Assembly: GCF_024223415.1 (NCBI RefSeq)
Contig: NZ_CP100500.1
Reading direction: 5' to 3' (one strand)
Origin: Escherichia coli
Lineage (GTDB): Bacteria > Pseudomonadota > Gammaproteobacteria > Enterobacterales > Enterobacteriaceae
Length of the DNA: 64,000 nucleotides
The notes below the pieces were generated by a model that saw only the letters and a list, made by a program, of their open reading frames with translations, did no database searches and had not been told where the DNA came from. Below, piece by piece: positions 1 through 26,964 of this stretch. The position numbers and the translations under genes are program-made. The number at the start of each line of letters is the position of its first letter. Positions within the stretch are counted from its first letter, which is position 1.

Positions 1-334
1 AGGTACCCGTATCTGGCTCGTTGCCGGCGTTACCGATATGCGTAAATCCTTCAACGGACTGGGAGAACAGGTACAACATGTGCTGAATGATAATCCCTTC
101 TCCGGTCACCTGTTTATCTTCCGTGGCCGACGGGGTGACACCGTCAAAATTCTTTGGGCTGATGCTGATGGTCTGTGCCTGTTCACCAAACGCCTGGAGG
201 AAGGCCAGTTTATCTGGCCTGCGGTACGTGACGGCAAGGTATCCATTACCCGCTCGCAACTGGCAATGCTCCTCGATAAGCTGGACTGGCGTCAGCCAAA
301 AACATCCAGCCGTAACTCACTGACAATGTTGTAA
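1..334 (+). CDS. tnpB: IS66-family transposase accessory protein TnpB, 5'-partial (window edge)
   Basis: Reading frame open from position 2; translation GTRIWLVAGVTDMRKSFNGL...FIFRGRRGDTVKILWAD matches the IS66 Orf2/TnpB family and is paralogous to ORFs at 6483 and 45637 in this window. Confidence 0.9.
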   Translation, partial: GTRIWLVAGVTDMRKSFNGLGEQVQHVLNDNPFSGHLFIFRGRRGDTVKILWADADGLCLFTKRLEEGQFIWPAVRDGKVSITRSQLAMLLDKLDWRQPKTSSRNSLTML

Positions 335-364
335 AAAACTCCTGACCGCATTATAAAAACGGTC

Positions 365-1978
365 ATGAGTCAGAAATATCTCATTCGCATCGCAGAGCTG
401 GAAAGATTGCTCTCTGAGCAGGCTGAAGCCCTCCGTCAGAAAGACCAGCAACTGAGTCTGGTTGAAGAGACGGAAGCCTTCCTGCGCTCTGCACTGACAC
501 GTGCCGAAGAAAAGATCGAAGAAGATGAACGGGAAATAGAACATCTGCGGGCTCAGATAGAAAAACTGCGCCGGATGCTGTTCGGTCCCCGTTCTGAAAA
601 ACTGCGTCGTGAAGTTGAACTGGCTGAGGCTCTGCTGAAACAACGTGAACAGGACAGCGATCGTTACAGTGGGCGGGAAGACGATCCTCAGGTTCCCCGC
701 CAGTTGCGACAGTCGCGCCATCGTCGTCCGTTACCGGCACACCTTCCCCGTGAAATACACCGCCTGGAGCCAGAAGAAAGCTGTTGCCCGGAGTGTGGCG
801 GTGAGCTGGATTATCTGGGGGAAGTCAGCGCTGAACAGCTGGAACTGGTGAGCAGTGCCCTGAAAGTGATCCGCACAGAACGGGTAAAAAAAGCCTGTAC
901 AAAATGTGACTGTATTGTTGAAGCACCGGCGTCGTCCCGCCCGATAGAGCGTGGTATCGCGGGCCCCGGATTACTTGCCCGCGTGTTAACGGGAAAATAC
1001 TGCGAACATCTGCCACTGTATCGTCAGAGTGAAATCTTTGCCCGCCAGGGTGTCGAACTGAGCCGGGCCTTACTCTCCAACTGGGTTGACGCGTGCTGCC
1101 AGTTAATGACACCGGTGAATGATGCCCTGTACCGTTATGTAATGAACACCCGCAAGGTTCACACTGATGACACACCGGTAAAGGTACTGGCACCGGGTCA
1201 GAAAAAGGCGAAAACAGGGCGTATCTGGACGTATGTCCGGGATGATCGCAATGTGGGTTCGTCATCTCCTCCAGCGGTCTGGTTCGCGTACTCGCCGAAC
1301 CGGCAGGGGAAACACCCGGAGCAACACCTCCGCCCCTTCCGGGGTATCCTGCAGGCGGATGCGTTCACAGGTTACGACAGGTTGTTCAGTGCAGAACGTG
1401 AAGGTGGTGCACTGACAGAAGTTGCGTGCTGGGCCCATGCCCGGCGAAAAATCCACGATGTATACATCAGCAGCAAAAGTGCGACGGCAGAAGAAGCCCT
1501 GAAGCGAATCAGTGAACTGTACGCCATCGAGGATGAAATACGGGGATTAGCGGAGTCAGAGCGTCTTGCCGTCAGGCAGCAGCGAAGCAAAGTGTTACTG
1601 ACGTCGCTGCATGAATGGATGGTGGAGAAGAATGGTACGCTGTCGAAAAAATCCAGACTGGGCGAAGCGTTCAGCTATGTACTGAATCAGTGGGATGCCC
1701 TCTGTTATTACAGTGATGACGGTCTGGCGGAGGCGGATAATAATGCTGCGGAAAGAGCGCTTCGTGCAGTCTGTCTCGGAAAGAAAAACTTTATGTTCTT
1801 TGGCAGCGATCACGGCGGCGAGCGTGGAGCACTGTTGTACGGGCTGATCGGCACCTGCCGTCTGAACGGTATCGATCCGGAAGCGTATCTGCGCCATATC
1901 CTGAGCGTACTGCCGGAATGGCCTTCCAACCGAGTTGATGAACTCCTGCCATGGAACGTAGTACTCACCAATAAATAA
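365..1978 (+). CDS. tnpC: IS66-family transposase TnpC
   Basis: 537 aa ORF with leucine-zipper-like N-terminus, CxxC...CxxC zinc-finger region and DDE region; paralogous to 6850..8454 and 44049..45587. Confidence 0.93.
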   Translation: MSQKYLIRIAELERLLSEQAEALRQKDQQLSLVEETEAFLRSALTRAEEKIEEDEREIEHLRAQIEKLRRMLFGPRSEKLRREVELAEALLKQREQDSDRYSGREDDPQVPRQLRQSRHRRPLPAHLPREIHRLEPEESCCPECGGELDYLGEVSAEQLELVSSALKVIRTERVKKACTKCDCIVEAPASSRPIERGIAGPGLLARVLTGKYCEHLPLYRQSEIFARQGVELSRALLSNWVDACCQLMTPVNDALYRYVMNTRKVHTDDTPVKVLAPGQKKAKTGRIWTYVRDDRNVGSSSPPAVWFAYSPNRQGKHPEQHLRPFRGILQADAFTGYDRLFSAEREGGALTEVACWAHARRKIHDVYISSKSATAEEALKRISELYAIEDEIRGLAESERLAVRQQRSKVLLTSLHEWMVEKNGTLSKKSRLGEAFSYVLNQWDALCYYSDDGLAEADNNAAERALRAVCLGKKNFMFFGSDHGGERGALLYGLIGTCRLNGIDPEAYLRHILSVLPEWPSNRVDELLPWNVVLTNK

Positions 1979-2084
1979 GCGTCAATACGGTGCTCCGTTG
2001 ACGCTTACCGTTTACCGGATAATGAGCGAAAATATCCTGTTGTTACATGACAAACCATCACGACCGCAGCGGGAACATAAAGGC

Positions 2085-2610
2085 CGAATATCGGTAAGGA
2101 AAGCGACCAGCGTTGATGTTCTGATGGCTTTGAGTTCGGTTGCGATGATGGCGAAAAAGTCCGGGTTACGTTCGCTCTGGACTGTTGCGATCGTGAAGCT
2201 ATCGACTGGGCATCCAATACGGGAGGTTACAATAAAGCGACAGTGCAGGATGTGATGTTAGGAGCGATAGAAAAACTCTTTGGCGATAAAGTACCGGAAC
2301 AGTCCATCCGGTGGTTGACAGATAACGGTTCAGCGTATAGAGCGCATGAAACACGGCAGTTCGCCAGAGAGTTGGATCTGGAGCCCTGCACAACGGCAAT
2401 CAGCAGCTCTCAGAGTAATGGAATGGCAGAAAGGTTAGTGAAAACGATGAAGGAAGACTACATTGCGTTCATACAGAAACCGAATGTAATAACGGCATTG
2501 CATAACCTTGCATAGGCGTTCGAGAATTACAATGAGAACCACCCGCATAGTGCGTTAGGTTATCTCTCACCACGGGAATATCGATGTCAGCGGATAACGT
2601 CACCTTAGAT
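2085..2610 (+). pseudogene. IS3-family (IS2-group) transposase OrfB C-terminal remnant
   Basis: Translation ...[24 protein letters not shown]...[25 protein letters not shown]...[12 protein letters not shown]... aligns with IS2 InsD (15776..16681) but has an internal stop and frame change and no N-terminal half. Confidence 0.7.
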
Positions 2611-2784
2611 GTAGCAGTTGCCAAACAGTGACTCAAGGGCAGGCTTACCGCATACACTGACACTTAGCGGATCGACAGAATATTATTAACAGTTCATCAC
2701 TGAACGCTACATAATCAGAGTTGCATAAATAAAATGTTATGTTATAACATTTTAATACCGACATATGTTTTCGGATGTATATGA

Positions 2785-4755
2785 ATGTATATGAATGTAA
2801 TCAGAACTGTCATTTGTACATTAATTATAGTCCCGGTGGGACTACAGGCAGCGACCAGTCATTCTTCTATGGCTAAAGATACAATCACCATTGTCGCGAC
2901 AGGAAATCAGAACACGGTATTTGAAACGCCGTCGATGGTCAGTGTCGTCACGAATGACACACCGTGGAGTCAGAATGCGGTTACATCGGCCGGCATGCTG
3001 AAAGGTGTTGCCGGTCTCAGCCAGACTGGTGCAGGACGGACCAATGGGCAGACCTTTAATCTACGCGGCTATGACAAAAGCGGGGTACTTGTTCTTGTTG
3101 ACGGCGTCCGCCAACTTAGTGACATGGCAAAAAGCAGTGGCACTTATCTGGATCCGGCTCTTGTCAAACGTATCGAAGTTGTCCGCGGGCCAAACTCCAG
3201 TCTGTACGGCAGTGGCGGGCTGGGAGGTGTAGTGGACTTCAGAACTGCCGATGCAGCAGATTTCCTTCCCCCCGGAGAGACAAACGGTTTAAGTCTGTGG
3301 GGAAATATTGCCAGTGGTGACCACAGCACAGGCTCGGGGCTCACCTGGTTCGGTAAAACCGGAAAAACAGATGCGCTCCTTTCTGTCATTATGCGTAAAA
3401 GAGGTAATATCTATCAAAGTGATGGTGAGCGCGCACCTAACAAGGAAAAACCTGCAGCCCTGTTTGCGAAAGGCTCTGTCGGTATAACAGACAGTAACAA
3501 AGCAGGTGCCAGCTTGCGTCTCTACCGGAATAACACCACTGAACCGGGCAATCCCACTCAGACACATGGTGACAGCGGCCTGCGTGACAGAAAAACAGTA
3601 CAAAATGACGTACAGTTCTGGTACCAGTACGCTCCTGTGGATAACAGCCTCATCAATGTACAGTCAACGTTATATCTCAGTGATATCACTATCAAGACAA
3701 ACGGTCACAACAAAACGGCAGAATGGAGAAACAACAGAACCTCCGGTGTTAATGTTGTCAACAGGAGTCATACTCTGATTTTTCCGGGAGCCCATCAGTT
3801 AAGTTATGGCGCTGAATATTACCGTCAGCAGCAGAAGCCAGAAGGCTCTGCCACACTATATCCGGAAGGAAATATTGACTTTACATCGTTGTATTTCCAG
3901 GATGAAATGACAATGAAAAGCTACCCTGTTAACATTATCGTCGGTTCCCGCTATGACCGGTACAAGAGCTTCAATCCCCGTGCCGGAGAACTGAAAGCCG
4001 AACGCCTGTCCCCAAGGGCGGCGATTTCAGTCTCACCGACAGACTGGCTGATGATGTACGGCTCCATATCCTCTGCATTCCGAGCGCCCACAATGGCAGA
4101 AATGTACAGGGATGATGTACATTTTTACCGCAAGGGTAAACCCAATTACTGGGTTCCTAACCTTAATCTGAAACCAGAAAATAACATCACCCGTGAGATT
4201 GGCGCAGGTATTCAACTGGATGGCCTGCTTACAGACAATGACCGGCTGCAGTTAAAAGGCGGATATTTCGGAACGGATGCCAGAAACTATATTGCCACAC
4301 GCGTGGATATGAAACGGATGCGTTCTTATTCTTATAATGTATCCCGGGCCCGTATCTGGGGATGGGATATGCAGGGAAATTACCAGTCTGATTATGTTGA
4401 CTGGGTGCTTTCTTATAACCGGACGGAAAGTATGGATGCCAGCAGCAGGGAATGGCTGGGCTCCGGCAATCCTGACACACTTATCAGTGACATCAGCATA
4501 CCTGTTGGTCATAGAGGCGTTTATGCCGGATGGCGTGCTGAACTTTCAGCATCAGCCACGCATGTGAAAAAAGGCGACTCCTATCAGGCTGGCTATGCCA
4601 TACATTCCTTTTCACTGTCTTATAAGCCTGTAAGTGTTAAAGGCTTTGAGGCGTCAGTAACTCTGGATAATGCCTTCAACAAGCTTGCCATGAATGGCAA
4701 AGGTGTGCCGCTTTCAGGCCGAACTGTCAGTCTTTATACCCGTTATCAGTGGTAA
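2785..4755 (+). CDS. TonB-dependent outer-membrane receptor, heme/hemoglobin type
   Basis: 656 aa; signal peptide, plug-domain motifs, FRAP motif (SAFRAPTMAEMY) and NPNL-like box (VPNLNLKPE), C-terminal aromatic residue (YQW). Confidence 0.85.
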   Translation: MYMNVIRTVICTLIIVPVGLQAATSHSSMAKDTITIVATGNQNTVFETPSMVSVVTNDTPWSQNAVTSAGMLKGVAGLSQTGAGRTNGQTFNLRGYDKSGVLVLVDGVRQLSDMAKSSGTYLDPALVKRIEVVRGPNSSLYGSGGLGGVVDFRTADAADFLPPGETNGLSLWGNIASGDHSTGSGLTWFGKTGKTDALLSVIMRKRGNIYQSDGERAPNKEKPAALFAKGSVGITDSNKAGASLRLYRNNTTEPGNPTQTHGDSGLRDRKTVQNDVQFWYQYAPVDNSLINVQSTLYLSDITIKTNGHNKTAEWRNNRTSGVNVVNRSHTLIFPGAHQLSYGAEYYRQQQKPEGSATLYPEGNIDFTSLYFQDEMTMKSYPVNIIVGSRYDRYKSFNPRAGELKAERLSPRAAISVSPTDWLMMYGSISSAFRAPTMAEMYRDDVHFYRKGKPNYWVPNLNLKPENNITREIGAGIQLDGLLTDNDRLQLKGGYFGTDARNYIATRVDMKRMRSYSYNVSRARIWGWDMQGNYQSDYVDWVLSYNRTESMDASSREWLGSGNPDTLISDISIPVGHRGVYAGWRAELSASATHVKKGDSYQAGYAIHSFSLSYKPVSVKGFEASVTLDNAFNKLAMNGKGVPLSGRTVSLYTRYQW

Positions 4756-4773
4756 CCTCTCAGGAAATAAATC

Positions 4774-5565
4774 ATGATGAAAAATACAGGCTATATCTTA
4801 GCTCTTTGTCTGACAGCATCGGGGCATGTCCTGGCCCATGATGTCTGGATTACCGGCAAACAGGCAGAGAACAACGTTATCGCAGAGATTGGTTATGGTC
4901 ATAATTTCCCCTCAAAGGGCACGATTCCTGACAGAAGGGATTTCTTTGAAACTCCCCGGCTTTATAACGGGAAAGAGACAATAACGCTGAAGCCAACATC
5001 CACGGATTATGTCTATAAAATTGAGACTGCAGGCAACGGTAATAGCTACGTTCTGTCAACGAAAATGAAACCGGGATACTGGTCGAGAACCTCGTCAGGA
5101 TGGAAGCCTGTCAGCCGGGAGGGCAGAAATGATGTGGCATACTGTGAGTTTGTGACTAAATATGCAAAATCTTTTATTCCTGGTGAACAGCAGATGCCAG
5201 CACAACTCTATCAGTATCCAATAGGGGATGAGCTTGAAATCATTCCGTTATCCGATATCAGTCGTTTCGGTGAAGATGTGAAGCTGAAAGTTCTGTATAA
5301 AACTTCCCCGCTTGCCGGAGCCACTCTGGAGCTTGACTCTGTCAGTTATCTGAAATCATCCCGCCATACTCATGCGGCAGAGCATAAACATTCGGCTCAT
5401 AAAGCAGAACTTACCTTTGTAAGTAATGAGGACGGTATCATCACTGTACCCTCCCTTCATGTCGGGCAATGGCTAGCTAAAGTCAAAAATAAGAAAGTAT
5501 TTCAGGACAAAAACCTGTGTGATGAAACTGTCGATGTGGCAACCTTAAGCTTCTCCCGAAATTAA
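4774..5565 (+). CDS. Secreted periplasmic protein, DUF4198-like, receptor-associated
   Basis: 263 aa with signal peptide; mature N-terminus AHDVWITG; immediately downstream of the receptor in the same orientation (19-bp gap); family assignment from memory only. Confidence 0.6.
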   Translation: MMKNTGYILALCLTASGHVLAHDVWITGKQAENNVIAEIGYGHNFPSKGTIPDRRDFFETPRLYNGKETITLKPTSTDYVYKIETAGNGNSYVLSTKMKPGYWSRTSSGWKPVSREGRNDVAYCEFVTKYAKSFIPGEQQMPAQLYQYPIGDELEIIPLSDISRFGEDVKLKVLYKTSPLAGATLELDSVSYLKSSRHTHAAEHKHSAHKAELTFVSNEDGIITVPSLHVGQWLAKVKNKKVFQDKNLCDETVDVATLSFSRN

Positions 5566-5575
5566 TAATACTATT

Positions 5576-5600
5576 CCTGCCCTGTAATTTACGGGCAGGG
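5576..5600 (+). terminator. Stem-loop downstream of the receptor operon
   Basis: Inverted repeat CCTGCCC...GGGCAGG 10 bp after the stop at 5565. Confidence 0.4.
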
Positions 5601-5811
5601 TATATCAACCGGAAATAGCCTACTGACATCCATGTATAAAGCCACATAATTATTTTGTTGATGTATCTTACCTAATACGTAAGCGTAAAGCCAATGCCGT
5701 CTGTAACTCCTGATCCTTGCAGACTAAATGTAAGCGCCCTATCAGCGACGTCTTGTGAAAATTGTCCTGTCTGGCAACAATTGCGCCCATCTATATTGAT
5801 GGACACGAACG

Positions 5812-6486
5812 ATGAATTCCCAGACAACAAAAGATATTCTCTGCTTCCGTTCTTATTTGCCTGATGCCCTACGTTTAAGATTTGAAGATAAACTGACTAT
5901 CCGAGCCATCGCTCAGCGTCTAGGTCTCAGTCATTCCACAATACATACGCTTTTTCAGCGATTTCTTGCATCCGGTATCGCATGGCCATTGCCCGATTCA
6001 GTTTCATTCGCTCAACTTGACGCCATCCTTTATGCCAACAGAAAGAAGGAATTAACAGAGCCTCAAATCAGAGAAGGCTCATGGCGAAAAGAACGGCGAA
6101 CCAGCTATAGCCGTGAATTTAAGGTCCGTCTGGCTAAGCAGGCATTACAGCCTGGTGCTGTTGTTGCCCGGATCGCCAGAGAACACGATATCAATGATAA
6201 GCTGCTGTTTAAATGGAAAAGCCAGTACGAGGACGGCTTACTGAGCGATGATGACATACAGGAATGCATGCCTGTCCCGGTGGCACTGACTGATAAGCCA
6301 GAGCCGACCAGACCAGTTACAAATCCCTTCTGGCGTAACAAGCCTGATGAGCGCCCTGAGGGGGATCCCGGAAACGTCCCACGGTGCGAGCTGCATCTTA
6401 AATCAGGTGTGGTAAAACTGTTTGACCCTCTCACTCCGGAACTGTTACGGGCGCTAATCCGCGAAATGAAAGGGGGTACCCGATGA
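5812..6486 (+). CDS. IS66-family accessory protein, TnpA-like with N-terminal extension
   Basis: 224 aa; central region ...YSREFKVRLAKQALQPGAVVARIAREHDINDKLLFKWKSQY... resembles IS66 Orf1 HTH; overlaps tnpB start. Confidence 0.7.
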   Translation: MNSQTTKDILCFRSYLPDALRLRFEDKLTIRAIAQRLGLSHSTIHTLFQRFLASGIAWPLPDSVSFAQLDAILYANRKKELTEPQIREGSWRKERRTSYSREFKVRLAKQALQPGAVVARIAREHDINDKLLFKWKSQYEDGLLSDDDIQECMPVPVALTDKPEPTRPVTNPFWRNKPDERPEGDPGNVPRCELHLKSGVVKLFDPLTPELLRALIREMKGGTR

Positions 6487-6830
6487 TAACGCTGCCGACC
6501 GGTACCAAAATCTGGATCATCGCTGGCATCACAGATATGCGTTGTGGCTTCAATGGCCTGGCTTCGAAGGTGCAGAACACGCTGAAAGATGACCCGTTCT
6601 CCGGGCATATCTTCGTCTTCCGGGGCCGCAGTGGCAAAATGGTGAAAATACTGTGGGCCGATCGTGATGGGTTATGCCTGTTCGCCAAACGCCTGGAACG
6701 GGGCCGCTTCATCTGGCCGGTGACCCGGGAAGGGAAAGTGCACCTGACGCCAGCTCAGTTATCCATGCTACTGGAGGGGATCGCGTGGCAACATCCCAAA
6801 CGGACAGAACGGCCTGGCATCCGGATATAA
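6483..6830 (+). CDS. tnpB: IS66-family TnpB
   Basis: 115 aa MITLPTGTKIWIIAGITDMRCGFNGL...; paralogous to the other TnpB copies. Confidence 0.9.
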   Translation: MITLPTGTKIWIIAGITDMRCGFNGLASKVQNTLKDDPFSGHIFVFRGRSGKMVKILWADRDGLCLFAKRLERGRFIWPVTREGKVHLTPAQLSMLLEGIAWQHPKRTERPGIRI

Positions 6831-6849
6831 CCCGTGATAAAACAAGGGA

Positions 6850-8454
6850 ATGAACAATGAACTCCCCGACGATATTGAGCTGCTTAAAGCCATGTTGCGT
6901 AAGCAACAGAGTCGGCTTCGCCAGTATACCTGTCAGGTCGCGGGCTATGAGCAGGAAATTGAACGGCTGAAAGCGCAACTCGACAGGTTGCGTCGTATGT
7001 TGTTCGGCCAGAGTTCAGAGAAAAAGCGTCATAAGCTTGAAAATCAGATCCGACAGGCAGAAAAACGACTGTCGGAACTGGAAAACCGGCTGAACACAGC
7101 CAGAAATCTTCTGGAAGATGCATCGTCAGTCACAGATTCACCTGACACCAGTCCCCCGTCAGAAAACCCGATCGCCAGTAAGCCTGAATCCCTGGGACGA
7201 AAATCTTCACGAAAACCGCTGCCGGCAGAACTTCCCCGGGAGACACATCGCCTTCTGCCTGCTGAAACCAGTTGCCCGGCCTGTGGAGGTGTTCTGAAAG
7301 AAATGGGGGAAACAATCTCAGAGCAACTGGATATCATTAATACCGCCTTTAAAGTTATTGAAACCATACGTCCCAAACGGGCCTGTAGCCGGTGCGACCA
7401 TATTGTGCAGGCGCCGGTTCCTTCAAAACCCATTGCACGCAGTTATGCCGGAGCGGGGCTTCTGGCTCATATCGTCACCGGGAAGTATGCAGACTATCTG
7501 CCGTTATACCGCCAGTCAGAAATATACCGTCGTCAGGGCGTGGAACTGAGCCGCGCCACGCTGGGGCGCTGGACCGGTGCCGTTGCTGAACTGCCGGAGC
7601 CGCTGTATGACGTGCTGCGCCAGTATGTGCTGATGCCCGGTAAAGTCCATGCGGATGATATCCCCGTTCCGGTCCAGGAGCCGGGCAGCGGTAAAACCCG
7701 GACAGCCCGGCTGTGGGTCTACGTCCGTGATGACCGCAATGCCGGTTCGGAAATGCCCCTGGCGGTCTGGTTCGCGTACAGTCCGGACCGGAAAGGCATA
7801 CATCCCTAGACTCATCTGGCCGGTTACAGCGGAGTGCTTCAGGCCGATGCTTACGGTGGCTACCGGGCGTTATACGAATCCGGCAGAATAACGGAAGCCG
7901 CGTGTATGGCTCATGCCCGGAGAAAAATCCACGATGTGCATGCAAGAGTGCCAACCGACATCACCACGGAAGCCCTGCGGCGTATCGGTGAACTGTATGT
8001 CATCGAGGCAGAAGTCCGGGGATGTTCAGCAGAACAGCGTCTGGCGGTAAGAAAAGCCAGAGCTGCGCCACTGATGCAGTCACTGTATGACTGGATACAG
8101 ACTCAGATGAAAACACTGTCGCGTCACTCGGATACGGCAAAAGCGTTCGCATACCTGCTGAAACAGTGGGATGGCCTGAACGTGTACTGCAGTAATGGCT
8201 GGGTGGAAATCGACAACAACATCGCAGAGAACGCCTTACGGGGAGTGGCCGTAGGCCGGAAAAACTGGCTCTTCGCGGGTTCCGACAGCGGTGGCGAACA
8301 TGCGGCGGTGTTGTACTCGCTGATCGGCACATGCCGTCTGAACAATGTGGAACCAGAAAAATGGCTGCGTTACGTCATTGAGCATATCCAGGACTGGCCG
8401 GCAAACCGGGTACGCGATCTGTTGCCCTGGAAAGTGGATCTGACCTCTCAGTAA
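6850..8454 (+). pseudogene. tnpC: IS66-family transposase TnpC interrupted by an in-frame TAG at 7807..7809
   Basis: ORFs 6850..7809 and 7834..8454 are in the same frame; the paralog at 44049..45587 reads ...[10 protein letters not shown]... where this copy reads ...KGIHP*THLA..., consistent with CAG to TAG. Confidence 0.85.
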
Positions 8455-8491
8455 ATATCAATACGGTTCTGGCGAGCCGCTTACGAACAAT

Positions 8492-10205
8492 GTGAATTAT
8501 GTTAATTATGTTTTCAGGCAGATGCTTCTCTGTCTGTTATTGTTCTGGCTGCCTGTATCCTGGGCTACCGAAAGTGGCTGGTTGCGTTCTCCTGAGAATG
8601 AGCATGCCAGTATACGGATACGTGCTGATTCCGTGGTCTCCGGGGAAACACGTGTTTTGCTGGACGTTAAACTGGATAACGGCTGGAAAACTTACTGGCG
8701 CTCACCCGGATAAGGGGGGATTGCACCGTCAGTCGACTGGAAAAGTGAAACACCGGAAGTGGAGTGGTACTGGCCTGGCCTTCACGTTTTGACGTGGCCG
8801 GCATTACCACTACGGGATATCACAACACAGTCACGTTTCCCGTGGTGTTACGTGGTATATCACCTGAGAGGATCACTGGCGTACTGACCCTGCCTGTCTG
8901 CAGCAATGTCTGTCTGCTGACCGATTACCCTTTCACTGTGAATGTTTCCACACAGGATACAACATTTGCACATGATTACGCACAGGCCATGGGGAAAATT
9001 CCGCTTTCCCATGGGGTAGCGGATTCCTTAAACGCGGTTTACCGACCTGGTGGACTGCTCATTACCGCAATACGGGCAGACGGCTGGTCATCTCCGGATA
9101 TTTATCTGGATTCTGTTGATTATGCAAGCTTCGGTAAGCCGCAGATGCAGATTGACGGCAAGAATCTGCTCGCATCTGTGCCGGTCACGGACAACTGGGG
9201 AGAGGGGGCGCCGGACCTGACTGGCCAACAAGTCACACTGGTTATTGAAAGCGGCGGCCTCGCTCAGGAAAGTACGCTTACGGTTGCGGCAGGTGCAACC
9301 AAAATAGCAGAGAATGTCTTACCTCTTTGGCAGGTCACTCTGATGGCATTAGCTGGTGGACTCATTCTTAACCTGATGCCCTGTGTATTACCGGTTCTGG
9401 GGATGAAGCTGGGCTCAGTTTTACTGGTGGAAGAGAAAAACCGTCAGCAGATTCGATGTCAGTTTCTGATGTCTGTAGCCGGGATCCTTACTTCCTTTAT
9501 GGCTCTGGCTACGTTAATGACCCTTCTGCGGCTGACAAACCGGGCTCTGGGGTGGGGGATCCAGTATCAGAGTCCCTGGTTTATTGTTCTGATGACGCTG
9601 GTTATGCTGATTTTTAGTGCCAGTCTGTTTGGCCTGTTTGAGTTCCGCCTGCCTTCCGGCCTCATGACTCGTCTGGCGACATTTGGTGGTAATGGAATGT
9701 CCGGACATTTCTGGCAGGGCGCTTTTGCGACTCTTCTGGCGACACCGTGTAGCGCCCCCTTCCTCGGTACGGCAGTGGCAGTGGCGCTGACGGCATCACT
9801 ACCCACTCTGTGGGGGATTTTCTTTGCACTGGGCGTGGGAATGAGTCTTCCGTGGCTGTTGGTGGCGTTGCGACCCGGGCTTGCGTTGTGTTTGCCCCAT
9901 CCGGGAGGATGGATGAATATTTTGCGTCGGGTGCTTGGCCTGATGATGCTGGGTTCTGCCTTCTGGCTGACAACACTGTTACTGCCACACTTGGGAGTAT
10001 CCTCACACAGTACAACGAAAGAACAGGTTGTCTGGCAGCCTCTCAGTGAACAGGCGATTAAGGAGGCGCTGGCTCAGCATAAGCGGGTATTTATCGATGT
10101 GACTGCAGACTGGTGTGTTACCTGTAAATTCAATAAATACAATGTGCTGCAAAAAGACAATGTGCAGAAGTCGCTGCAGGAGGCGGATGTTGTTGCACTG
10201 CGTGG
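8492..10205 (+). pseudogene. scsB: DsbD-family thiol:disulfide interchange protein (ScsB-like), decayed and 3'-truncated
   Basis: N-terminal ORF stops at TAA 8711..8713, frame resumes in 8764..; central transmembrane core and C-terminal thioredoxin motif WCVTCK present; reading frame runs into IS629 at 10206. Confidence 0.7.
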
Positions 10206-10259
10206 TGAACCGCCCCGGGAATCCTGGAGACTAAACTCCCTGAGAAAGAGGTAAACAGA

Positions 10260-10586
10260 ATGACTAAAAATACTCGTTTTTCCCCCGAAGTCCGTCAGAG
10301 GGCGATTCGTATGGTTCTGGAAAGTCAGGGCGAATATGACTCACAGTGGGCGGCAATTTGTTCCATTGCCCCAAAGATTGGCTGTACACCGGAGACTCTG
10401 CGTGTCTGGGTACGCCAGCATGAGCGGGATACCGGAGGCGGTGATGGCGGGCTCACCACCGCTGAACGTCAGCGTCTGAAAGAGCTGGAACGTGAAAATC
10501 GTGAACTGCGCCGCAGTAACGATATCCTTCGCCAGGCTTCCGCTTATTTTGCGAAGGCGGAGTTCGACCGCCTCTGGAAAAAGTGA
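10260..10586 (+). CDS. IS629 OrfA
   Basis: [59 protein letters not shown]... Confidence 0.9.
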
Positions 10587-11473
10587 TGCCACTGCTGGAT
10601 AAGCTGCGTAAGCTGTACGGGGTCGGACCGGTATGCAGTGAACTACATATTGCCCCGTCAACGTATTACCACTGTCAGCAACAGCAGCATCATCCTGATA
10701 AACGCAGCGCCCGTGCGCAGCGTGATGACTGGCTGAAGAAAGAGATACAGCGCGTATACGATGAAAATCACCAGGTGTACGGTGTGCGTAAAGTCTGGCG
10801 TCAGTTGTTACGGGAAGGTATCAGAGTGGCCAGATGCACTGTGACACGTCTTATGGCGGTTATGGGTTTTGCCGATGTTCTCCGGGGTAAAAAGGTCCGC
10901 ACTACCGTCAGCCGGAAAGCCGTTGCCGCAGGCGACCGCGTAAACCGTCAGTTTGTGGCAGAACGTCCTGACCAGTTGTGGGTGGCTGATTTTACTTACG
11001 TCAGCACATGGCAGGGGGTCGTCTATGTGGCGTTCATCATTGATGTGTTTGCCGGATACATCGTGGGGTGGCGGGTCTCATCGTCTATGGAAACGACATT
11101 CGTGCTGGATGCTCTGGAGCAGGCGTTATGGGCCCGTCGACCGTCCGGCACAGTCCATCACAGTGATAAAGGTTCTCAGTATGTATCGCTGGCCTACACA
11201 CAGCGGCTTAAGGAAGCCGGATTACTGGCATCAACAGGAAGTACTGGTGACTCGTATGACAACGCGATGGCGGAGAGCATCAATGGCCTTTACAAAGCGG
11301 AGGTAATACACCGTAAGAGCTGGAAAAACCGGACAGAAGTGGAGCTGGCCACACTCACGTGGGTGGACTGGTATAACAATCGACGATTGCTGGAAAGGCT
11401 GGGCCATATCCCACCGGCAGAAGCAGAAAAAGCTTATTATGCTTCCATCGGAAACGATGATCTGGCAGCCTGA
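10583..11473 (+). CDS. IS629 OrfB (DDE transposase)
   Basis: 296 aa with integrase catalytic core ...[13 protein letters not shown]...[10 protein letters not shown]...; overlaps OrfA as in IS3-family frameshift arrangement. Confidence 0.9.
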
Positions 11474-11523
11474 GTTCACAGATAAAACACTCTCCAGGAA
11501 ACCCGGGGCGGTTCACTCCGGAG

Positions 11524-11790
11524 GTGGCGGCTTTATCTGCCAGGGGAGAGAATGTGATGACGATTGCATACCGTTCCGGCTCATCTGATGAGGTGAGCCG
11601 GAAGCTGGCTCTCAGGAGGAACAGGTTCCCGGTGATCAATGATGCTGATGGCACAATATCCCGTTTATGGAGAATTAGAGTAACCCCGACGTTCGTAGTG
11701 ATATCGAAGGGGCGGGTAATCTCCACAACCAGCGGCTGGACCAGTTCCTGGGGGATGAAGCTACGACTGCGGTGGGCCACAATAGTCTGA
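11524..11790 (+). pseudogene. Possible thioredoxin-like (TlpA/ScsD-like) C-terminal fragment
   Basis: Translation ...FPVINDADGTISRLWRIRVTPTFVVISKGRV... resembles the C-terminal part of a TlpA-like thioredoxin fold; no N-terminal CxxC region present. Confidence 0.35.
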
Positions 11791-12119
11791 GCAGAAGACA
11801 GCCTTCTGAGAAGGAAACCTTTCAGAAGACGCCCTTACCAAAGTTGGTGATGGAAAGACTGTTGGCAGAGAGACAGATGGACATATCCGGTCGCGCTTAT
11901 GAGACAAGTCTGTGGTCACAGAGCCTGTTTATCACTCAGTGTAAATGTCTTTTCTCAGTCGGGGGCCGTCCAGACGATAACTGGGTCCGATAATAAAGCT
12001 ACATCGCCCATTTTTGTGATGCTGCCTGGATTACCGGCTGTACGGCCTTGTACTGAGAAACAGAAAAAGACTTCAGTCACCCGGCGAAAACGGTCCCTGT
12101 CCCCCCGTTACCTTATTCG

Positions 12120-12239
<120 letters not shown>

Positions 12240-12301
12240 TACCCATCTGAAACCCGAACAGTTGTCCATACGCTATAACGCATTTGCAAGGATGGGTAAT
12301 C

Positions 12302-12600
12302 ATGAGTCAGCCAAATCAGCTTTGTGTGGGTATTGATGTTTCTAAAACAACTCTTGACATTGCTACTGCTAACAACGAGTTTGCTCAGTTTACTTCTTGT
12401 AACGACACCGATGGTTTTTAGCTCATCATTGCTGAATTGAGAAATCATTCGGTGGCGCTGGTTTTGATGGAGGCTACTGGTGGGTTTGAAGCTGCTGTAG
12501 CCTGTTCACTTTAGGCTGAAGGTTTTGATATAGCTGTTATCAATCCCAGACAGGCCAGGAATTTCTCTCGTGCTAAAATCAGTTATTTCCCGAGGTTGGA
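12302..12600 (+). pseudogene. IS110-family transposase N-terminal fragment with internal stops
   Basis: MSQPNQLCVGIDVSKTTLDIA...[38 protein letters not shown]...; two stop codons and loss of similarity after about 12600. Confidence 0.6.
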
Positions 12601-12787
12601 TAGCCCTGTCCGATCAACATTTCCCAACATAGCTCACAAAACAGACACTTTATTTATTGACTTTGTTTTAATATGTGATAAATACGGAGAAGTGGTCTAA
12701 CAGGTTTAATGATTGGTCGGACAAGATGATAATAAATGGCATTTTATATCAACCAATTTTCATGTTTATACATAGAGGAGGGATTAT

Positions 12788-13777
12788 ATGAAAATTAGGT
12801 TATTTATCCATTCGTTATTTTATTCATCAGTTCTGGTGACTTTGCTTATCAATAGCGTAAATGCCGCAGAAAAAGTGACATTAAAATTGGCACACAACCT
12901 TGAACGCAGTCATGTTGTACACCAGACTTTTGAACATCTGGCAAACGAGGTAAAACAACTTTCTAATGGCAATATTGTCATTCGTATATACCCCAGTAGC
13001 CAGATGGGTAATGCGCGAGAAACTATGGAGTTGTTACAAAATGGCGCACTGGATATGACCAAAGGTTCCGCCAGTGATCTGGAGTCTTTTGATAATATTT
13101 ATGCTATCTATAATTTGCCGTTCTTATTTAAAGATCAGGCGCACTTCAACAAAGTGGTTTTTGGTGAAGTTGGTAAAGAAATTATGGACTCAACAAAAGA
13201 CAAAGGCTTTTTTGCTTTATCAGCTTATGTAGCGGGTACTCGCAGTTTCTATGCGAAAAAACCGATTACTAAGCCAGAAGATCTTAAAGGGCTGAAAATT
13301 CGTGTTCAGCCAAGCCCGACCACCATCAAAATGATTGAACTGATGGGGGGCTCACCCACTCCAATTTCATTTGGCGAAGTTTATACTGCGATGCAGCAAG
13401 GTGTAGTAGATGGCGCAGAAAATAACGTGCCTTCCTGGGTGCAGACTCGACATATCGAAATTGCCAAAGTCTTTTCTGAAGATGAACATGCCTCAATTCC
13501 TGACTTTTTGGTTATCTCCACCAAAACATGGAATAAATTAACCCCAGAACAGCAACAAATCCTCGAAACAGCGGCGAAGAAATCCGAAGCTTATCAACAA
13601 AAATTGTGGGAAAAAATTGACGCTGACACACGTGCTCAGGCGAAAGCTATGGGTGGTGAAATCGTTAAGGTTGATAAAGCCCCATTCCGTGCCGCAGTTC
13701 AACCTCTGTTTGACGACTTCAAAAAAGATCCAAAACAAGCTGCTTTGTTAGAGAAATTCGACAACGCTGCTCAATAA
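12788..13777 (+). CDS. TRAP transporter substrate-binding protein (DctP family)
   Basis: 329 aa, signal peptide, DctP-like sequence; first of three co-directional TRAP genes; substrate unknown. Confidence 0.85.
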   Translation: MKIRLFIHSLFYSSVLVTLLINSVNAAEKVTLKLAHNLERSHVVHQTFEHLANEVKQLSNGNIVIRIYPSSQMGNARETMELLQNGALDMTKGSASDLESFDNIYAIYNLPFLFKDQAHFNKVVFGEVGKEIMDSTKDKGFFALSAYVAGTRSFYAKKPITKPEDLKGLKIRVQPSPTTIKMIELMGGSPTPISFGEVYTAMQQGVVDGAENNVPSWVQTRHIEIAKVFSEDEHASIPDFLVISTKTWNKLTPEQQQILETAAKKSEAYQQKLWEKIDADTRAQAKAMGGEIVKVDKAPFRAAVQPLFDDFKKDPKQAALLEKFDNAAQ

Positions 13778-19590: not shown

Positions 19591-21270
19591 TTACTTATCC
19601 CGCGTCTCGCCAGCCTCCCAGCTGTAGCTGCCATCGGCCGCTAAGCTATCGCCCAGCTCCTGATACTCGAACTGATAAAACTCAGCCTGGGTGCCGTACC
19701 CGGCGTAGTCTACCGCCGCCAGGCCGACGAACGCCCCGGTAAAGAACCCGCCGTAGCTCTGCAACACATAGTCATCGGACAGCACCGCGGCATCCAGCTG
19801 GACCGGGATCTCGGTGAACGTCACGCCATCGAAGCTGTATTCATAGCTGTAGGTCTGCTTGCGGACTTTGGTCCGGAACCAGACGTATTCCACGCCGTCC
19901 GGCACCTTGATGGCGTTATCTTTCAGGTACGACGTGTATTTCCCGCGGTTATTTTCGCCGACTTCGATGACCTTGCCGTTAATTTCATTCCAGGTCAGGA
20001 AGACGAAGCTCCAGTGGCGGTCGTTATAGTAATTCGTTAACCCGGCCATCTGCTGGTAGCTGAAGGGCTCGAATTTCACCTTCACCGCGGCGTCAAAATA
20101 GAAGGCCTGCCAGCGGCGGGCAATCAGCGACAGATCATGCGTATTGGCTAACGAGCCCTGGCCGATTAAGGTTAATTTGCCGTTACCGGTGGTGCCCATT
20201 TTGGCCGTAAACGGCACCCGCAGGGTATTCCAGTTCGGGTCGAGGGCTGGCGACGTAAAGTCATCCTGCTGGCTATTATCGCTGGCGCTTTCGGTGAAGA
20301 TGGCGTCTTTCGGTCCTTCGACGAAGGTTTTCCCGCCGTGACCGCCTTCAATACGCGGCCAGCCCTCGTCATCCCAGTACACTTTCTGGATCGCGGTTTC
20401 CCGGCCGAGGGTTGACCAGCCGCGCGGGTCGTAGATGGATTCCCCCGGGCGATTCCACGGCCGGGCGCAGAGCGAGGCGTAATACCATTCGCCTTCCGGG
20501 GTGGAGACCAGCGCGCCATGGCCCTGTTTCTGGATGTAGCTGTCCGGGGTGTCGACGTTGGTTAAGAACACGTCGCCCGGCTCGGTTTCAAAGCTGTCGG
20601 CCTCGAGGGTTTTCGACCGCGCCACCACCTCCTGGTGGGTAAACACGGTGCCGCCCTGGGCGGCAAACAGGTAGTAGTAGCCGTTCAGTTTATAGAGGTG
20701 CGGCCCCTCGACCAGCGCTACGGCGGTGCCGCGGTAGATGGTGCGCGCGGTTTCCGGCATTAACTTCAGCGTGTTGGTATCCAGCTCCGTTAAGGTAATG
20801 CCATCGAAGGGGTGATGGTACTCCCGGTGATCCCAGGTTTGCTGGACGATATATTTCCGGCCATCGTCGTCATGGAACAGCGAGGCGTCAAACCCGACTC
20901 CGTTCAGCTTGATCGGGTCGCTCCACGGGCCCCGAATATCCTTCGCGGTGGTCAGGTAGTTGGTCATGTCTTTGAAGGCGCCTTCGGTGACCTTCACATC
21001 GGTATACACCAACCAGAATTGCCCGTCGGCCCAGGAGAGCGCCGGCGCCCAAATGCCGCCGGAGGAGGGGTTGCCCTTCATGTCCAGCAGGGTGGTGGTG
21101 GAGAGCGGCGAAGGCAGCAGGTTCCAGTTTTTCAGGTCTTTCGACTCATGTAAACGCACGCCCGGAAACCACTCAAACGTCGAGTTGGCAATATAGTACG
21201 TATCCTCGACGCGAATAATACTGGGGTCGGCATTAAAGCCGCGTAATATCGGGTTTTGAATAAGTGACAT
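19591..21270 (-). CDS. xynB: Glycoside hydrolase family 43 beta-xylosidase (XynB-like)
   Basis: 559 aa; N-terminal GH43 five-bladed propeller motifs (...FNADPSIIRVEDTYYIANSTFEWFPGV...) plus C-terminal beta-sandwich; high GC. Confidence 0.85.
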   Translation of the reverse strand: MSLIQNPILRGFNADPSIIRVEDTYYIANSTFEWFPGVRLHESKDLKNWNLLPSPLSTTTLLDMKGNPSSGGIWAPALSWADGQFWLVYTDVKVTEGAFKDMTNYLTTAKDIRGPWSDPIKLNGVGFDASLFHDDDGRKYIVQQTWDHREYHHPFDGITLTELDTNTLKLMPETARTIYRGTAVALVEGPHLYKLNGYYYLFAAQGGTVFTHQEVVARSKTLEADSFETEPGDVFLTNVDTPDSYIQKQGHGALVSTPEGEWYYASLCARPWNRPGESIYDPRGWSTLGRETAIQKVYWDDEGWPRIEGGHGGKTFVEGPKDAIFTESASDNSQQDDFTSPALDPNWNTLRVPFTAKMGTTGNGKLTLIGQGSLANTHDLSLIARRWQAFYFDAAVKVKFEPFSYQQMAGLTNYYNDRHWSFVFLTWNEINGKVIEVGENNRGKYTSYLKDNAIKVPDGVEYVWFRTKVRKQTYSYEYSFDGVTFTEIPVQLDAAVLSDDYVLQSYGGFFTGAFVGLAAVDYAGYGTQAEFYQFEYQELGDSLAADGSYSWEAGETRDK

Positions 21271-21328
21271 TTCATTACACCTTTTAAAATGGAAAGTGAC
21301 GAATCGGTCTGATTTATAATTTTTTTAA

Positions 21329-22783
21329 CTACACGCGGATCTCATCCAGCTGACGGTTGATGTCGGTAACATGTTTATCGGAGATCGGATAAACCTGGAT
21401 AATCACCATCGAAATAGCGGCCAGCGCGATCGGGATCCACACCGCGGTCATAATGATCCCGTCGATGGCGCTGGCGCTCTGCACGGCGCCGCTTTCATTA
21501 AAGCCATACACCGCCAGCAGCCACAGCGGGATCGCGCCGCCGATGGTGAAGCCGATCTTGAAGAAGAGTCCCATAATGGCATTGATAATGGCGGCATTGC
21601 GTTTGCCAGATTTTAATTCGCCGTACGCGATGACTTCCGGTACCAGCGCCCACATAAAGCCGGTGGCGGAGGTTAAGCCCCACTGTTTAATAAAGGTGGC
21701 GATGTAGGCCAGCCACAGGGCGTCGTGCATCCCTTCGCGGGACCAGACGTAGGTCAGCAGTTCGCCGACGATAAACATGGCGAGGAACAGATGGAAGAAG
21801 CCTTTTTTACCAAAGATTTTTTTCAGTTTCGGCCAGAAAATCGGGAAGGCGATGCCGGGAATAGACGCGACGAGACCCACCGCGCCCATCCATTCGGAGT
21901 GGCCGACGACGTACTGGTTGAAGAAGCCGTTAACAGTGTTCATGAAGAACATGAAGGTAAAGGCCAGCATAAAGAACATGCCCAGAATAACCAGCGGGCG
22001 GTTATGTCGGAGCTCGTGGAAAAGGTCGGTGGTTTTGACGTTGGCGGTCTGCTCGGCGGTCGCGACAACGCGTTCTTTGGTGAATTTATAACAGATAAAC
22101 AGAGCCACCGCGCCGATGATCATATAGATGGCGTACACGCCAAACCAGGCGTAATTTGCCGACGGATCGGCATAATTCCCCAGATTCAGCTCAAGGCCAA
22201 AAAAGCCGGTGTCTTTCAGGCTGCGATCTTTCGGCGCCGCCATCTGCACAAACATCGGGAACAGGGTATAGACCAGCAGGTTGGCGCTGTTGGCCAGCAT
22301 CATGCGGGTACTGGTCAGTTTATCGATCGATTCCGGGTCGCGGGTCAGCGACGCATTCAGCGAGCCATAGGGAATATTGACTAAGGAATAAACCAGGTCC
22401 AGCGCCAGATAAATAATAAAGGCGAAAGCCACCGAACCTTTCACTCCGGGGATGGGCGCGAACAGTAATGCCGAGAGGATCACCAGCGGCACGCCGGCTC
22501 GTAACAGCCACGGACGATATTTCCCTGCCTTCGAGGTTCGTTTATCCACGTAGGTGCCGACCATCGGATCCCAAAACACGTTAATTATGCGGACAAAAAG
22601 AAAAATAAAGCCTGCCGTTGCCGTGCTGATGGTATTTACCGTCAGCATATGCAAAGCCAGAAAACCCCCAATTGTGCCGAAAACCAGGTTTTGCGCAAAG
22701 TCGCCCATGCCATAACCAATTCGTTCTCCACGGGTTAATTTATGATATTCATCATGCCGACTGTGCATTATGTTTTTACTCAT
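21329..22783 (-). CDS. Glycoside-pentoside-hexuronide (GPH) family cation symporter, xyloside transporter-like
   Basis: Polytopic membrane protein with GPH-family N-terminus (...RIGYGMGDFAQNLVFGTIGGF...); start chosen at MSKNIM; co-directional with the xylosidase. Confidence 0.8.
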   Translation of the reverse strand: MSKNIMHSRHDEYHKLTRGERIGYGMGDFAQNLVFGTIGGFLALHMLTVNTISTATAGFIFLFVRIINVFWDPMVGTYVDKRTSKAGKYRPWLLRAGVPLVILSALLFAPIPGVKGSVAFAFIIYLALDLVYSLVNIPYGSLNASLTRDPESIDKLTSTRMMLANSANLLVYTLFPMFVQMAAPKDRSLKDTGFFGLELNLGNYADPSANYAWFGVYAIYMIIGAVALFICYKFTKERVVATAEQTANVKTTDLFHELRHNRPLVILGMFFMLAFTFMFFMNTVNGFFNQYVVGHSEWMGAVGLVASIPGIAFPIFWPKLKKIFGKKGFFHLFLAMFIVGELLTYVWSREGMHDALWLAYIATFIKQWGLTSATGFMWALVPEVIAYGELKSGKRNAAIINAIMGLFFKIGFTIGGAIPLWLLAVYGFNESGAVQSASAIDGIIMTAVWIPIALAAISMVIIQVYPISDKHVTDINRQLDEIRV

Positions 22784-23194
22784 TCTAAGCAGACTCCGGT
22801 TTGTTTTGTGTAGGTGAAACACTTTCTGACACAGTTGACATGGAAGAATCTATTACGTTTTTAAATTAAGTAATTATGTTTTTTTACTTCTGTGATCCTC
22901 GAAGCAAAGGCCTGTATCACCTGCGTTGAGCCGCCATCCGCCGCTAATTTTTTGGCAGACAGGCAATGTGACAAAACCGGCATTTTAATTCGCTATGCCC
23001 ACCTGAATTCCCCAGGAAGTGTACTCTATACGCGCGCGAAGCGAGATATTTAAAATAGTTTTATTTGCGAGATGGCTCACATTTGAGCATTTTCTCAATC
23101 GCTGAGTGAAATAACGTAATTGAGCAACCGACGATGAGAATACACGATGTGTCACAGTTGTTAATTTTCGGCTTCCTCAATTTCGGAGTTCATC

Positions 23195-24514
<1,320 letters not shown>

Positions 24515-24523
24515 ATTTGGCTG

Positions 24524-24545
24524 ACATGCCCCTGCGGGGGCATGT
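24524..24545 (+). terminator. Stem-loop after xylA
   Basis: ACATGCCCC-TGC-GGGGGCATGT 10 bp after the xylA stop. Confidence 0.5.
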
Positions 24546-24844
24546 ATTCCGCCGTGTGCCCGCTGCCGGGAAATAGCGTTTATTTGTTCGTGTTGTATTT
24601 ATGCTGTCTGTGCCGAAAGGCTATCTGTTTGACTGTCTATAGAGGAACAATCCGCCGCGCGGATGGTTCTGCCATTGTGCCACCTTTTTAATATCAGTGA
24701 GGGAGGGCGAGTAGCGATAATTGTGTAATGCCTCTGTGACCGTACAAAATAAAAAATAATTTGTTCTGATGATAGCGACATATTCTGTCAGCTCAGAATA
24801 GGCTGGTTATTGTCTGAATAAAATTAACCTATATTGAGAAACTC

Positions 24845-25156: not shown

Positions 25157-25352
25157 AAAAAAGACCGTATTAGCTGATTTACGGAAAATATGTACTCCAC
25201 AAGCGTCAATATCAGACGAGGCCTGGGAAAAGATAATGTTGTCTGATGAAAGTAATCAGCAGCACATCCGTGAGGCTATTGTGGCGATGGAACGCAATAA
25301 CCAGAACAATTACTGGGAAGCGTTAGGCAAGGTTGAATGCCCGGATATGTAG

Positions 25353-25376
25353 ACGTGAAGCTGCAGCTTCACGTCA
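25353..25376. terminator. Perfect palindrome downstream of the LacI-family regulator gene
   Basis: GACGTGAAGCTGCAGCTTCACGTC 13 bp beyond the regulator stop at 25389. Confidence 0.5.
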
Positions 25377-25388
25377 TACATTTAGCAC

Positions 25389-26951: not shown

Positions 26952-26964
26952 GAAAGGTGTCATT

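Follow-up and report, generated by a model that had tools for sequence, protein, structure and literature searches.

Which operon did this locus once belong to, how did it come to be cut down to its present form, and in which direction have its alleles been changing? The locus lies in a 64,000-nucleotide stretch of Escherichia coli DNA, here called the window, and an initial annotation made from the sequence alone had taken it for a decayed scs-like copper-tolerance locus. Near-identical intact alleles, in which the genes are ordered scsA-scsB-scsC-scsD, bear this out. In Salmonella, scsABCD encodes a copper-induced periplasmic thiol-disulfide reductase system, in which ScsB hands electrons to ScsC and ScsD. 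Expression of the Salmonella genes is induced by copper and by CpxR, and they contribute to copper and oxidative stress tolerance (PMC10907172).

The gene order of Salmonella enterica scsABCD (suppressor of copper sensitivity) is found unchanged in the intact sister alleles, referred to as L004, L006 and L007, and also in Enterobacter and Klebsiella loci; the scs genes left in the window itself are a truncated scsB and the tail of scsD. ScsC of intact L006 matches Salmonella ScsC (PDB 4GXZ) across the mature protein (E = 4.8e-91), and the ScsB alpha domain of the intact alleles matches that of Proteus mirabilis (6C29; E = 3e-66). ScsB has the expected periplasmic alpha domain, DsbD-type membrane domain and C-terminal thioredoxin gamma domain; the Pfam families DsbD_N, DsbD_TM and Thioredoxin_7 are found in the window fragments, and the intact alleles have DUF8393 as well. 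Because the NCBIfam DsbD model scores 112 bits on ScsB, below its cut-off of 330, the protein is of the ScsB type and not DsbD proper; a search of NCBIfam for an Scs-specific model returned none. The intact sister ScsB belongs to the 626-630-aa type and is 70% identical to Salmonella ScsB, and their ScsD, as in Salmonella, resembles TlpA/DsbE and has a CxxC motif. Relative to the 669-aa ScsB of Klebsiella and Enterobacter, 47 aa seem to be missing internally; an additional scsB deletion was considered as the cause and rejected, since ScsB of the 626-630-aa Salmonella/Citrobacter type, including the intact sisters, naturally lacks that segment.

Unlike its Salmonella counterpart, the operon sits in an E. 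coli accessory island, where it adjoins a TRAP transporter and a nicO/DUF1007/DUF302 cluster, and in the window it has lost scsA and scsC and keeps a triply disabled scsB and an scsD tail that can no longer catalyse anything. Because the CxxC motifs of ScsC and ScsD, on which catalysis depends, have been deleted, the window copy is a pseudogene remnant and not a working member of the family; the native promoter region is deleted too. Judged by its sequence, the region is very probably without function and is what remains of an scsABCD operon that was acquired horizontally and lies in a mosaic accessory island. The decay itself is of an ordinary kind, routine pseudogenisation driven by insertion sequences (IS), with two such elements and two point lesions (Table 1). 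For annotation, this means that the open reading frames should be named as scsB and scsD pseudogene fragments and that the island should get no credit for copper or redox tolerance.

Table 1. Features of the scs remnant and its surroundings, in window coordinates.
Feature	Coordinates	Strand	Evidence or remarks
Decayed IS66-family element	5730..8484	+	Terminal GTAAGCG repeats; right end ..GCCGCTTAC adjoins scsB start region
IS66 tnpA	5812-6486	+	Part of the 5730..8484 element
IS66 tnpB	6483-6830	+	Part of the 5730..8484 element
IS66 tnpC, broken by TAG at 7807-7809	6850-8454	+	Part of the 5730..8484 element
Spacer GAACAATG, 8 bases from IS66 end to scsB	8485..8492	+	Direct comparison with L006
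scsB pseudogene (DsbD-superfamily membrane reductase)	8492..10205	+	Codons 1-571 plus 2 nt of 630; Pfam, tblastn to Enterobacter/Klebsiella ScsB
9-bp tandem duplication, AATTATGTT twice (codons 2-7, NYVNYV); polymorphism	8495..8512	+	Allele comparison
Nonsense codon TAA, ancestral GAA (Glu74)	8711..8713	+	Comparison with intact alleles
1-bp deletion (T lost from Val96 GTG), -1 frameshift	8777..8778	+	Comparison with intact alleles
IS629/IS1203-group IS3-family element, 1310 bp, intact-looking	10206..11515	+	Ends TGAACCGCC...GGCGGTTCA
orfA of IS629-like element	10260-10586	+	Pfam HTH_Tnp_1
orfB of IS629-like element	10583-11473	+	Pfam rve/HTH_21/rve_3
ALIL frameshift pseudoknot	10541-10657	+	Rfam, 116 bits against a gathering score of 50
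scsD remnant (codons 78-168)	11516..11790	+	From second base of codon 78 to stop at 11788-11790
IS110-family transposase fragment, internal stops	12305..12577	+	PGAP on identical ECCNB12-2 region, converted coordinates; ORF list

The locus has been cut back at both ends, on the left by a deletion adjacent to the IS66-family element and on the right by one at the IS629-like element. In intact L006, about 3.6 kb of sequence (nicO, DUF1007, DUF302 and scsA) lies beyond the same IS66 end and is absent from the window. The deletion also took the scsB ribosome-binding site, the native GGAG; the gene starts with GTG where the intact allele has ATG. The flanks of the IS66-family element, GACTAAAT and GAACAATG, form no 8-bp duplication, and the right-hand one matches the native GAAAAATA at six of its eight positions (chance of at least 6/8 about 0.004, own calculation). 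This element and the deletion beside it had been overlooked in the earlier reading; PGAP, in strain ECCNB12-2, labels the IS66 gene 'tnpC, internal stop'.

The element on the right has terminal inverted repeats that read TGAACCGCCCCGGG at both ends, each on its own strand, its 1310 bp fit IS629, and its orfA (HTH) and orfB (DDE rve) are joined by a -1 programmed frameshift, as they are in that element. It had been called IS629, and the IS3-family anatomy stands. By ISfinder convention a named element is assigned at 95% or more nucleotide identity to its reference. The window copy shares 94.5-95% identity with O157 copies assigned by PGAP to the IS1203 family and 97-99% with avian E. coli copies, so that, given the figure for the O157 copies, 'IS629/IS1203 group' is the safer label. 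The absence of a target duplication had been observed correctly: TGG and CTC flank the element where a 3-bp duplication would be usual. Such flanks are what an IS that had mediated or inherited a deletion should have, and they do not speak against membership of the family. The idea that TGG and CGG form an imperfect target duplication, the CTC being extra, was rejected, as CTC is native scsD sequence in the intact allele.

Alignment to intact scs loci, which the initial annotation had proposed as a check, maps the segment for which the element now stands in. Relative to L006, 1019 bp are missing, namely the 3' end of scsB, all of scsC (with CPYC at residue 66) and scsD codons 1-77, which confirms both the suspected IS-associated deletion and the loss of the scsB C-terminus, the gene stopping at 10205 in codon 572 of 630. 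The deletion destroys the ScsB gamma thioredoxin domain, scsC, and the anchor and CxxC motif of ScsD. What had been put forward as a possible scsD remnant is certain to be one, for it matches residues 78-168 of intact ScsD with one substitution; tblastn aligns it with ScsD of Enterobacter and Klebsiella at 52-53% identity (E = 5e-27 to 4e-28). Neither the membrane anchor nor the CGVC active site at residues 71-74 is left in it.

Comparison with other strains yields a series of alleles, in which state A is intact, state B is the window, states C and D are IS-less scars, and state E keeps the IS and has lost the left flank. Between A and B, the IS66-adjacent deletion took nicO, DUF1007, DUF302, scsA and the scsB ribosome-binding site, scsB came to carry the Glu74 nonsense codon and the 1-bp frameshift at codon 96, and the IS629/IS1203-group element replaced 1019 bp that begin in codon 572 of scsB and end in codon 78 of scsD. 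The IS-linked deletion could have arisen by RecA recombination between two IS copies in the same orientation or by transposase-driven adjacent deletion. With two copies, one would have lain in scsB with a TGG duplication and the other in scsD with a CTC duplication, and the respective junctions would read GGGGCGGTTCA+TGGTGACTGG and TTTACCACTC+TGAACCGCC. We lean slightly towards RecA recombination, because in related strains IS629 has independently entered scsB at other sites; among the compared alleles, no intermediate between the intact state and state B carries a duplication-flanked IS. The competing route, a direct adjacent deletion by the transposase of a single copy through 'sloppy' strand transfer, possibly assisted by IEE, is a serious contender that we would still bet somewhat against. 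Events dependent on IEE or transposase are reported to give deletions beside the IS whose size varies from several bp to over 40 kb (PMC9943667), and state E is a second adjacent deletion, on the other side of the same IS copy; however, copy-out-paste-in transposition alone is not expected to delete donor flanks, no iee gene lies within the window, and three independent IS629 insertions in the 1.9-kb scsB gene make a two-copy stage plausible.

At the breakpoints the intact allele reads ..GCACTGCGTGGTGACTGG.. and ..TTTACCACTCCGGAGG.., and the window has the TGG and the CTC up to the IS ends. Scar C, in which GCACTGCG is joined to CGGAGG, has lost TGG, the IS and CTC, 1316 bp in all with 3 bp gone on each side, and shows no microhomology; scar D joins GTTGCACT to CCGGAGG at a 4-bp CACT microhomology, with 1318 bp gone. 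In state E, found in one lineage, everything to the left of the retained IS is lost up to the left end of the IS66-family element. The 502-aa product of scar C is found on 51 contigs, the 496-aa IS-fusion product on about 10 and the 491-aa product of scar D on 2, and across about 6 kb of flanking sequence there are essentially no SNPs between states B, C and D. Since the window retains ancestral bases that both scars lack, comparison shows state B to be an evolutionary intermediate, from which the IS-less alleles C and D derive. The decay had been called ongoing, and these further-decayed alleles in other strains agree. Read in this way, one IS copy offers an ordered natural series, from the intact gene through an IS-linked deletion to loss of the IS (with two scars) or to further deletion of a flank, and on this evidence the locus is a tidy natural record of near-precise IS loss. 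Such a series is useful in teaching or as a benchmark of how IS629-type elements erode accessory genes and then vanish, and it shows that a deletion junction without an IS may once have held one.

The loss of the IS would have been a process specific to the IS ends, for which the candidates are excision linked to the transposase and slippage across the inverted repeats. IEE-promoted excision of IS629 was reportedly described in E. coli O157 by Kusumoto in 2011. IS629 excision and adjacent deletions are documented (PMC9943667, bioRxiv 10.1101/2023.06.07.543989, through which Kusumoto 2011 is cited), and IEE promotes excision with small adjacent deletions (PMC9943667). The present locus resembles the IS629/IS1203 polymorphisms of O157 in that a 1310-bp IS3-family element with orfA/orfB frameshifting inactivated a gene, deleted a flank and was later lost near-precisely; it differs in its host, which is not O157, in an IS that is about 95% identical to the O157 copies, in an excision site without target duplication (hence the imprecise scars), and in that iee went undetected wherever its presence could be checked. 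That IEE made both scars is rather unlikely, even though there were two independent losses, each of the IS plus at most 6 bp, though small adjacent deletions are known from IEE, and though the 4-bp joint of scar D agrees with the reported need of IEE end-joining for at least 4 bp. Scar C lacks microhomology, excision without IEE and replication slippage are on record as well, and iee is present in only 740 of 5426 complete genomes. It has no tblastn match in the window or the compared loci, and in a search confined to the chromosome of ECCNB12-2, a strain with scar C, a chimeric scsB+iee query matched by its scs part only. IEE involvement was thus tested and found unsupported, and with iee absent from the window and from that chromosome the best-known excision pathway of IS629 is unsupported for the present-day scar-C strain.

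Loss of ISApl1 from Tn6330 (mcr-1) offers a parallel, which we take from what a review by Chandler relates of Snesrud 2018. There, too, a natural allele series is seen and the deleted segment is near the IS length, and the joints are described as lying at microhomologies of 2-4 bp, a pattern into which scar D at CACT fits. ISApl1, however, is of the IS30 family and the present element of the IS3 family, and scar C shows no microhomology and has exactly 3 bp removed on each side. It is conceivable, albeit unlikely, that scar C is the natural trace left by reciprocal strand transfers of the IS3 type, with each transfer attacking 3 nt beyond the other end of the IS. The IS would then leave as a double-stranded circle, and the donor ends would carry 3-nt 5' overhangs. 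After a normal insertion these overhangs would be the two copies of the target duplication and would anneal to give precise excision, whereas at a site without duplication they would stay unpaired and be trimmed, so that either side loses 3 bp. This model, if correct, would provide evidence from within a genome that a transposase of the IS629 type can carry out genuine double-strand excision and needs no IEE for it.

The order of events could also be reversed, with the scsB-scsD deletion arising first and without an IS, and the IS629-like element inserting later at the existing junction. The IS-less alleles, with nearly the same deletion, are indeed commoner than the IS-bearing allele, yet this order is very improbable: the window has six ancestral bases (TGG and CTC) that are absent from scar C, and GCGTGG, which is absent from scar D, an insertion cannot bring ancestral bases back (chance about 1/4096), and it should leave a 3-bp duplication, of which there is none.

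Within scsB, the window is 99.65% identical at the DNA level to intact L006 in the same island context, with 5 differences, 3 of them inactivating. Both point lesions had been placed correctly, the TAA at 8711 and a frame change near 8750-8780: the first replaces the GAA (Glu74) of the intact alleles, and the second is a single T missing between 8777 and 8778, where the intact CCT GTG CCT at codon 96 reads CCT GGC CT. Whether the lesions were real had been left as a check, and their recurrence in at least 15 independent assemblies rules out sequencing error: all related assemblies with coverage of the TAA, the frameshift and the IS66-scsB junction have them (L001, L008-L015, L017-L020, L022, L025 and L026). 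There is accordingly next to no chance that the scs operon is otherwise intact and that faulty sequencing or assembly produced the stop codon, the frame change and the junctions. For that reading nothing was found beyond single-base indels being a common error class in general; the same lesions and junctions recur in a complete genome and in multi-megabase contigs, and the indel lies within CCTG-GCC, away from any homopolymer run.

The 9-bp duplication at 8495-8512 was rejected as a lesion or IS footprint; it is a polymorphism, because the intact 630-aa alleles L006 and L007 carry it, and it is absent from the intact 627-aa allele L004. A 496-aa open reading frame (8764-10254) is left, from which the signal peptide is missing, as is the last part of the thioredoxin fold; exact-product look-ups of the 421-aa and 88-aa open reading frames gave no match. 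A search for tRNA genes in the window found none. Downstream of scsD, the IS110-family fragment is part of the common island backbone, and the spacing from scsD to dctP, 998 bp, is the same in intact L006.

The scs locus of the window is a case of ordinary IS-driven pseudogenisation of an accessory operon. We show that 1019 bp were replaced where its IS629/IS1203-group element now lies, and that this copy of the IS has since been lost on two occasions in other strains. Over the window ORFs 8492-8713 and 8764-10254, from the ORF list of window 7000-13000, Pfam finds the domains DsbD_N, DsbD_TM and Thioredoxin_7. The canonical scsA-scsB-scsC-scsD order is seen in Enterobacter and Klebsiella loci, both plasmid-borne, whose ScsB needs two frames to align: residues 4-91 with window 8510-8776, across a TAA, and residues 93-619 with 8779-10224. 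Residues 78-162 of their ScsD align with window 11515-11769 (E = 5e-27 to 4e-28). Near-identical intact E. coli alleles turned up in a protein search at three loci, L004 (ScsB of 627 aa, 97.9% DNA identity to the window) and L006 and L007 (630 aa, 99.65%), the latter two in the same island context with TRAP dctPQM downstream. No Scs model was found in NCBIfam. Since L006 ScsC has a match in Salmonella ScsC (PDB 4GXZ, E = 4.8e-91) and the alpha domain of ScsB one in ScsB-alpha of Proteus mirabilis (6C29, E = 3e-66), and since the NCBIfam DsbD model scores far under its cut-off, the label "scs-like" of the initial annotation is warranted. Such loci are typical for Salmonella and several other enterobacteria and rare in E. 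coli (recent review, PMC10907172).

With intact L006 as the reference for the lesion map, the damage first noted from the sequence could be placed to the base. The TAA at 8711 is a GAA to TAA change in scsB codon 74 (window 8711-8713), the frame change near 8750-8780 is the loss of one T from codon 96, between 8777 and 8778, and the missing C-terminus at the IS junction begins at codon 572 of 630. The proposed IS-associated deletion is equally real: L006 9716-10734 (1019 bp) is the segment replaced by the IS, and with the end of scsB it held the whole of scsC, including its CPYC motif, and scsD codons 1-77, within which ScsD CGVC (residues 71-74) falls. The scsD remnant, first noted as possible, is confirmed: window 11516-11790 carries a single residue change relative to ScsD of L004. 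Lesions aside, just two positions separate scsB from its L006 counterpart; scsB was therefore inactivated recently. Two further candidate lesions were rejected: a 47-aa gap relative to the 669-aa Klebsiella ScsB is natural variation, and a 9-bp tandem duplication, AATTATGTT (window 8495-8512, scsB codons 2-7), is a polymorphism that the intact 630-aa alleles share.

Sequencing or assembly error is ruled out as the source of the lesions and junctions: all related assemblies that span the TAA, the frameshift and the IS66/scsB junction have them, the complete ECCNB12-2 genome included. PGAP describes scsB of ECCNB12-2 as "frameshifted; internal stop; missing C-terminus" and its neighbour as "protein disulfide oxidoreductase, missing N-terminus", and window 1-10967 has a 100% identical match in contig UDHK01000044.1 (assembly GCA_900482235.1), whose end lies within the IS.

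As the initial annotation stated, the IS has no target duplication (left flank ...GCACTGCGTGG, right flank CTCCGGAGGTGG...), and no second copy of it was found within the window. What that annotation had not included is a second IS-adjacent deletion and a population-level series with later IS loss. After the right end of the decayed IS66-family element L006 has ~3586 bp (nicO, DUF1007, DUF302, scsA) that are missing from the window, where this end directly abuts GAACAATG plus TGAATTATG; the GGAG ribosome-binding site of scsB is gone and its start codon is GTG vs ATG in L006. The tnpC of this element is interrupted by a TAG (window 7807-7809), and no 8-bp target duplication was found around the element (flanks GACTAAAT vs GAACAATG).

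Mobile elements of the scs locus in the window, and allele states with their junctions (/, joint)
Feature	Window position	Sequence	Length or change	Source or carriers
IS3-type IS	10206-11515	ends TGAACCGCC...GGCGGTTCA	1310 bp	
OrfA (HTH_Tnp_1)	10260-10586			Pfam
OrfB (rve)	10583-11473			Pfam
ALIL frameshift pseudoknot	10541-10657			Rfam
Decayed IS66-family element	5730-8484		right end 8484	
IS110-family transposase fragment	12305-12577		internal stops; between scsD and dctP	common to intact and decayed alleles
State A (intact)		..GCACTGCGTGGTGACTGG.. and ..TTTACCACTCCGGAGG..		L004, L006, L007
State B (window)		..GCACTGCGTGG(IS)CTCCGGAGG..		496-aa product P0122, ~10 contigs
State C		..GCACTGCG/CGGAGG..	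without 1316 bp = TGG + IS + CTC	502-aa P0121, 51 contigs
State D		..GTTGCACT/CCGGAGG..	without 1318 bp	491-aa P0131, 2 contigs
State E		IS/scsD junction kept; left IS end joined to window 5799	5800-10205 deleted	L021

The locus occurs in one of 5426 complete E. coli genomes, there without the IS, and comparison of junction sequences sets apart the five states of the table. State B keeps ancestral bases that are missing from both C and D, and C and D each hold a base without counterpart in the other; C and D are therefore independent derivatives of B, not precursors. The flanks of all three are essentially SNP-free over ~6 kb. In state E, L021 806-919 is joined to the IS at 917, corresponding to window 5687-5799 joined to 10206; this deletion, the second to adjoin the same IS copy, took the whole of scsB and the greater part of the IS66 element.

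The ongoing decay first proposed is seen in states C-E and in further alleles. At L005 (1-113), a locus of a related strain, an IS629 end in inverted orientation lies directly against window 8887, and in the ScsB product P0128 an IS629 insertion follows ...GGNGM, at about window 9697; these are two further independent IS629-type insertions, and scsB has therefore been hit at least three times. Decay of scsB is also continuing in IS-less strains, since among scar-C strains P0130 has lost two membrane-domain codons in frame and P0135 has another frameshift near ORF residue 75.

State B could have arisen by recombination between two same-orientation IS copies or by an adjacent deletion driven by transposase. 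We lean slightly towards recombination between two copies, as the three independent IS629 hits in scsB make a two-copy stage plausible. For the later losses, scar D fits a microhomology joint, lying inside a CACT repeat whose right copy takes in the last two IS bases. Scar C is short of exactly 3 bp on either side of the IS. IS3-family transposases, as known from IS911, attack 3 bp outside the opposite IS end, and the agreement of the 3-bp loss with this distance suggests a transposase-linked origin of scar C. A review gives this distance only as "a small flanking sequence". IEE is documented to promote IS629 excision accompanied by small adjoining deletions (PMC9943667; also a review), and excision without IEE is known too, as is replication slippage; no iee gene was found in the window or on the ECCNB12-2 chromosome. 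At the O157 Sakai locus (L016 28953-31313) and in hits H110-H113, PGAP now names the iee product [quoted passage not shown], a name that ties IEE to defence-system nomenclature.

The scs remnant lies in a mosaic accessory island that makes up the window. Upstream of it are genes for a TonB-dependent receptor and a DUF4198 protein, downstream is TRAP dctPQM, and the window has no tRNA gene. It also carries an S6-peptidase (SPATE) autotransporter (39669-43493) and sugar-utilisation genes (19591-31593), namely GH43 with an MFS transporter and PTS EIIC with GH1 and a LamB-type porin. At L021, L023 and L024, loci of related strains, the sequence that follows the TRAP transporter (window about 15771/17095) runs into inverted window 5697-4182 (TonB-receptor/DUF4198 region), implying that the whole segment underwent an IS-bounded inversion or deletion.
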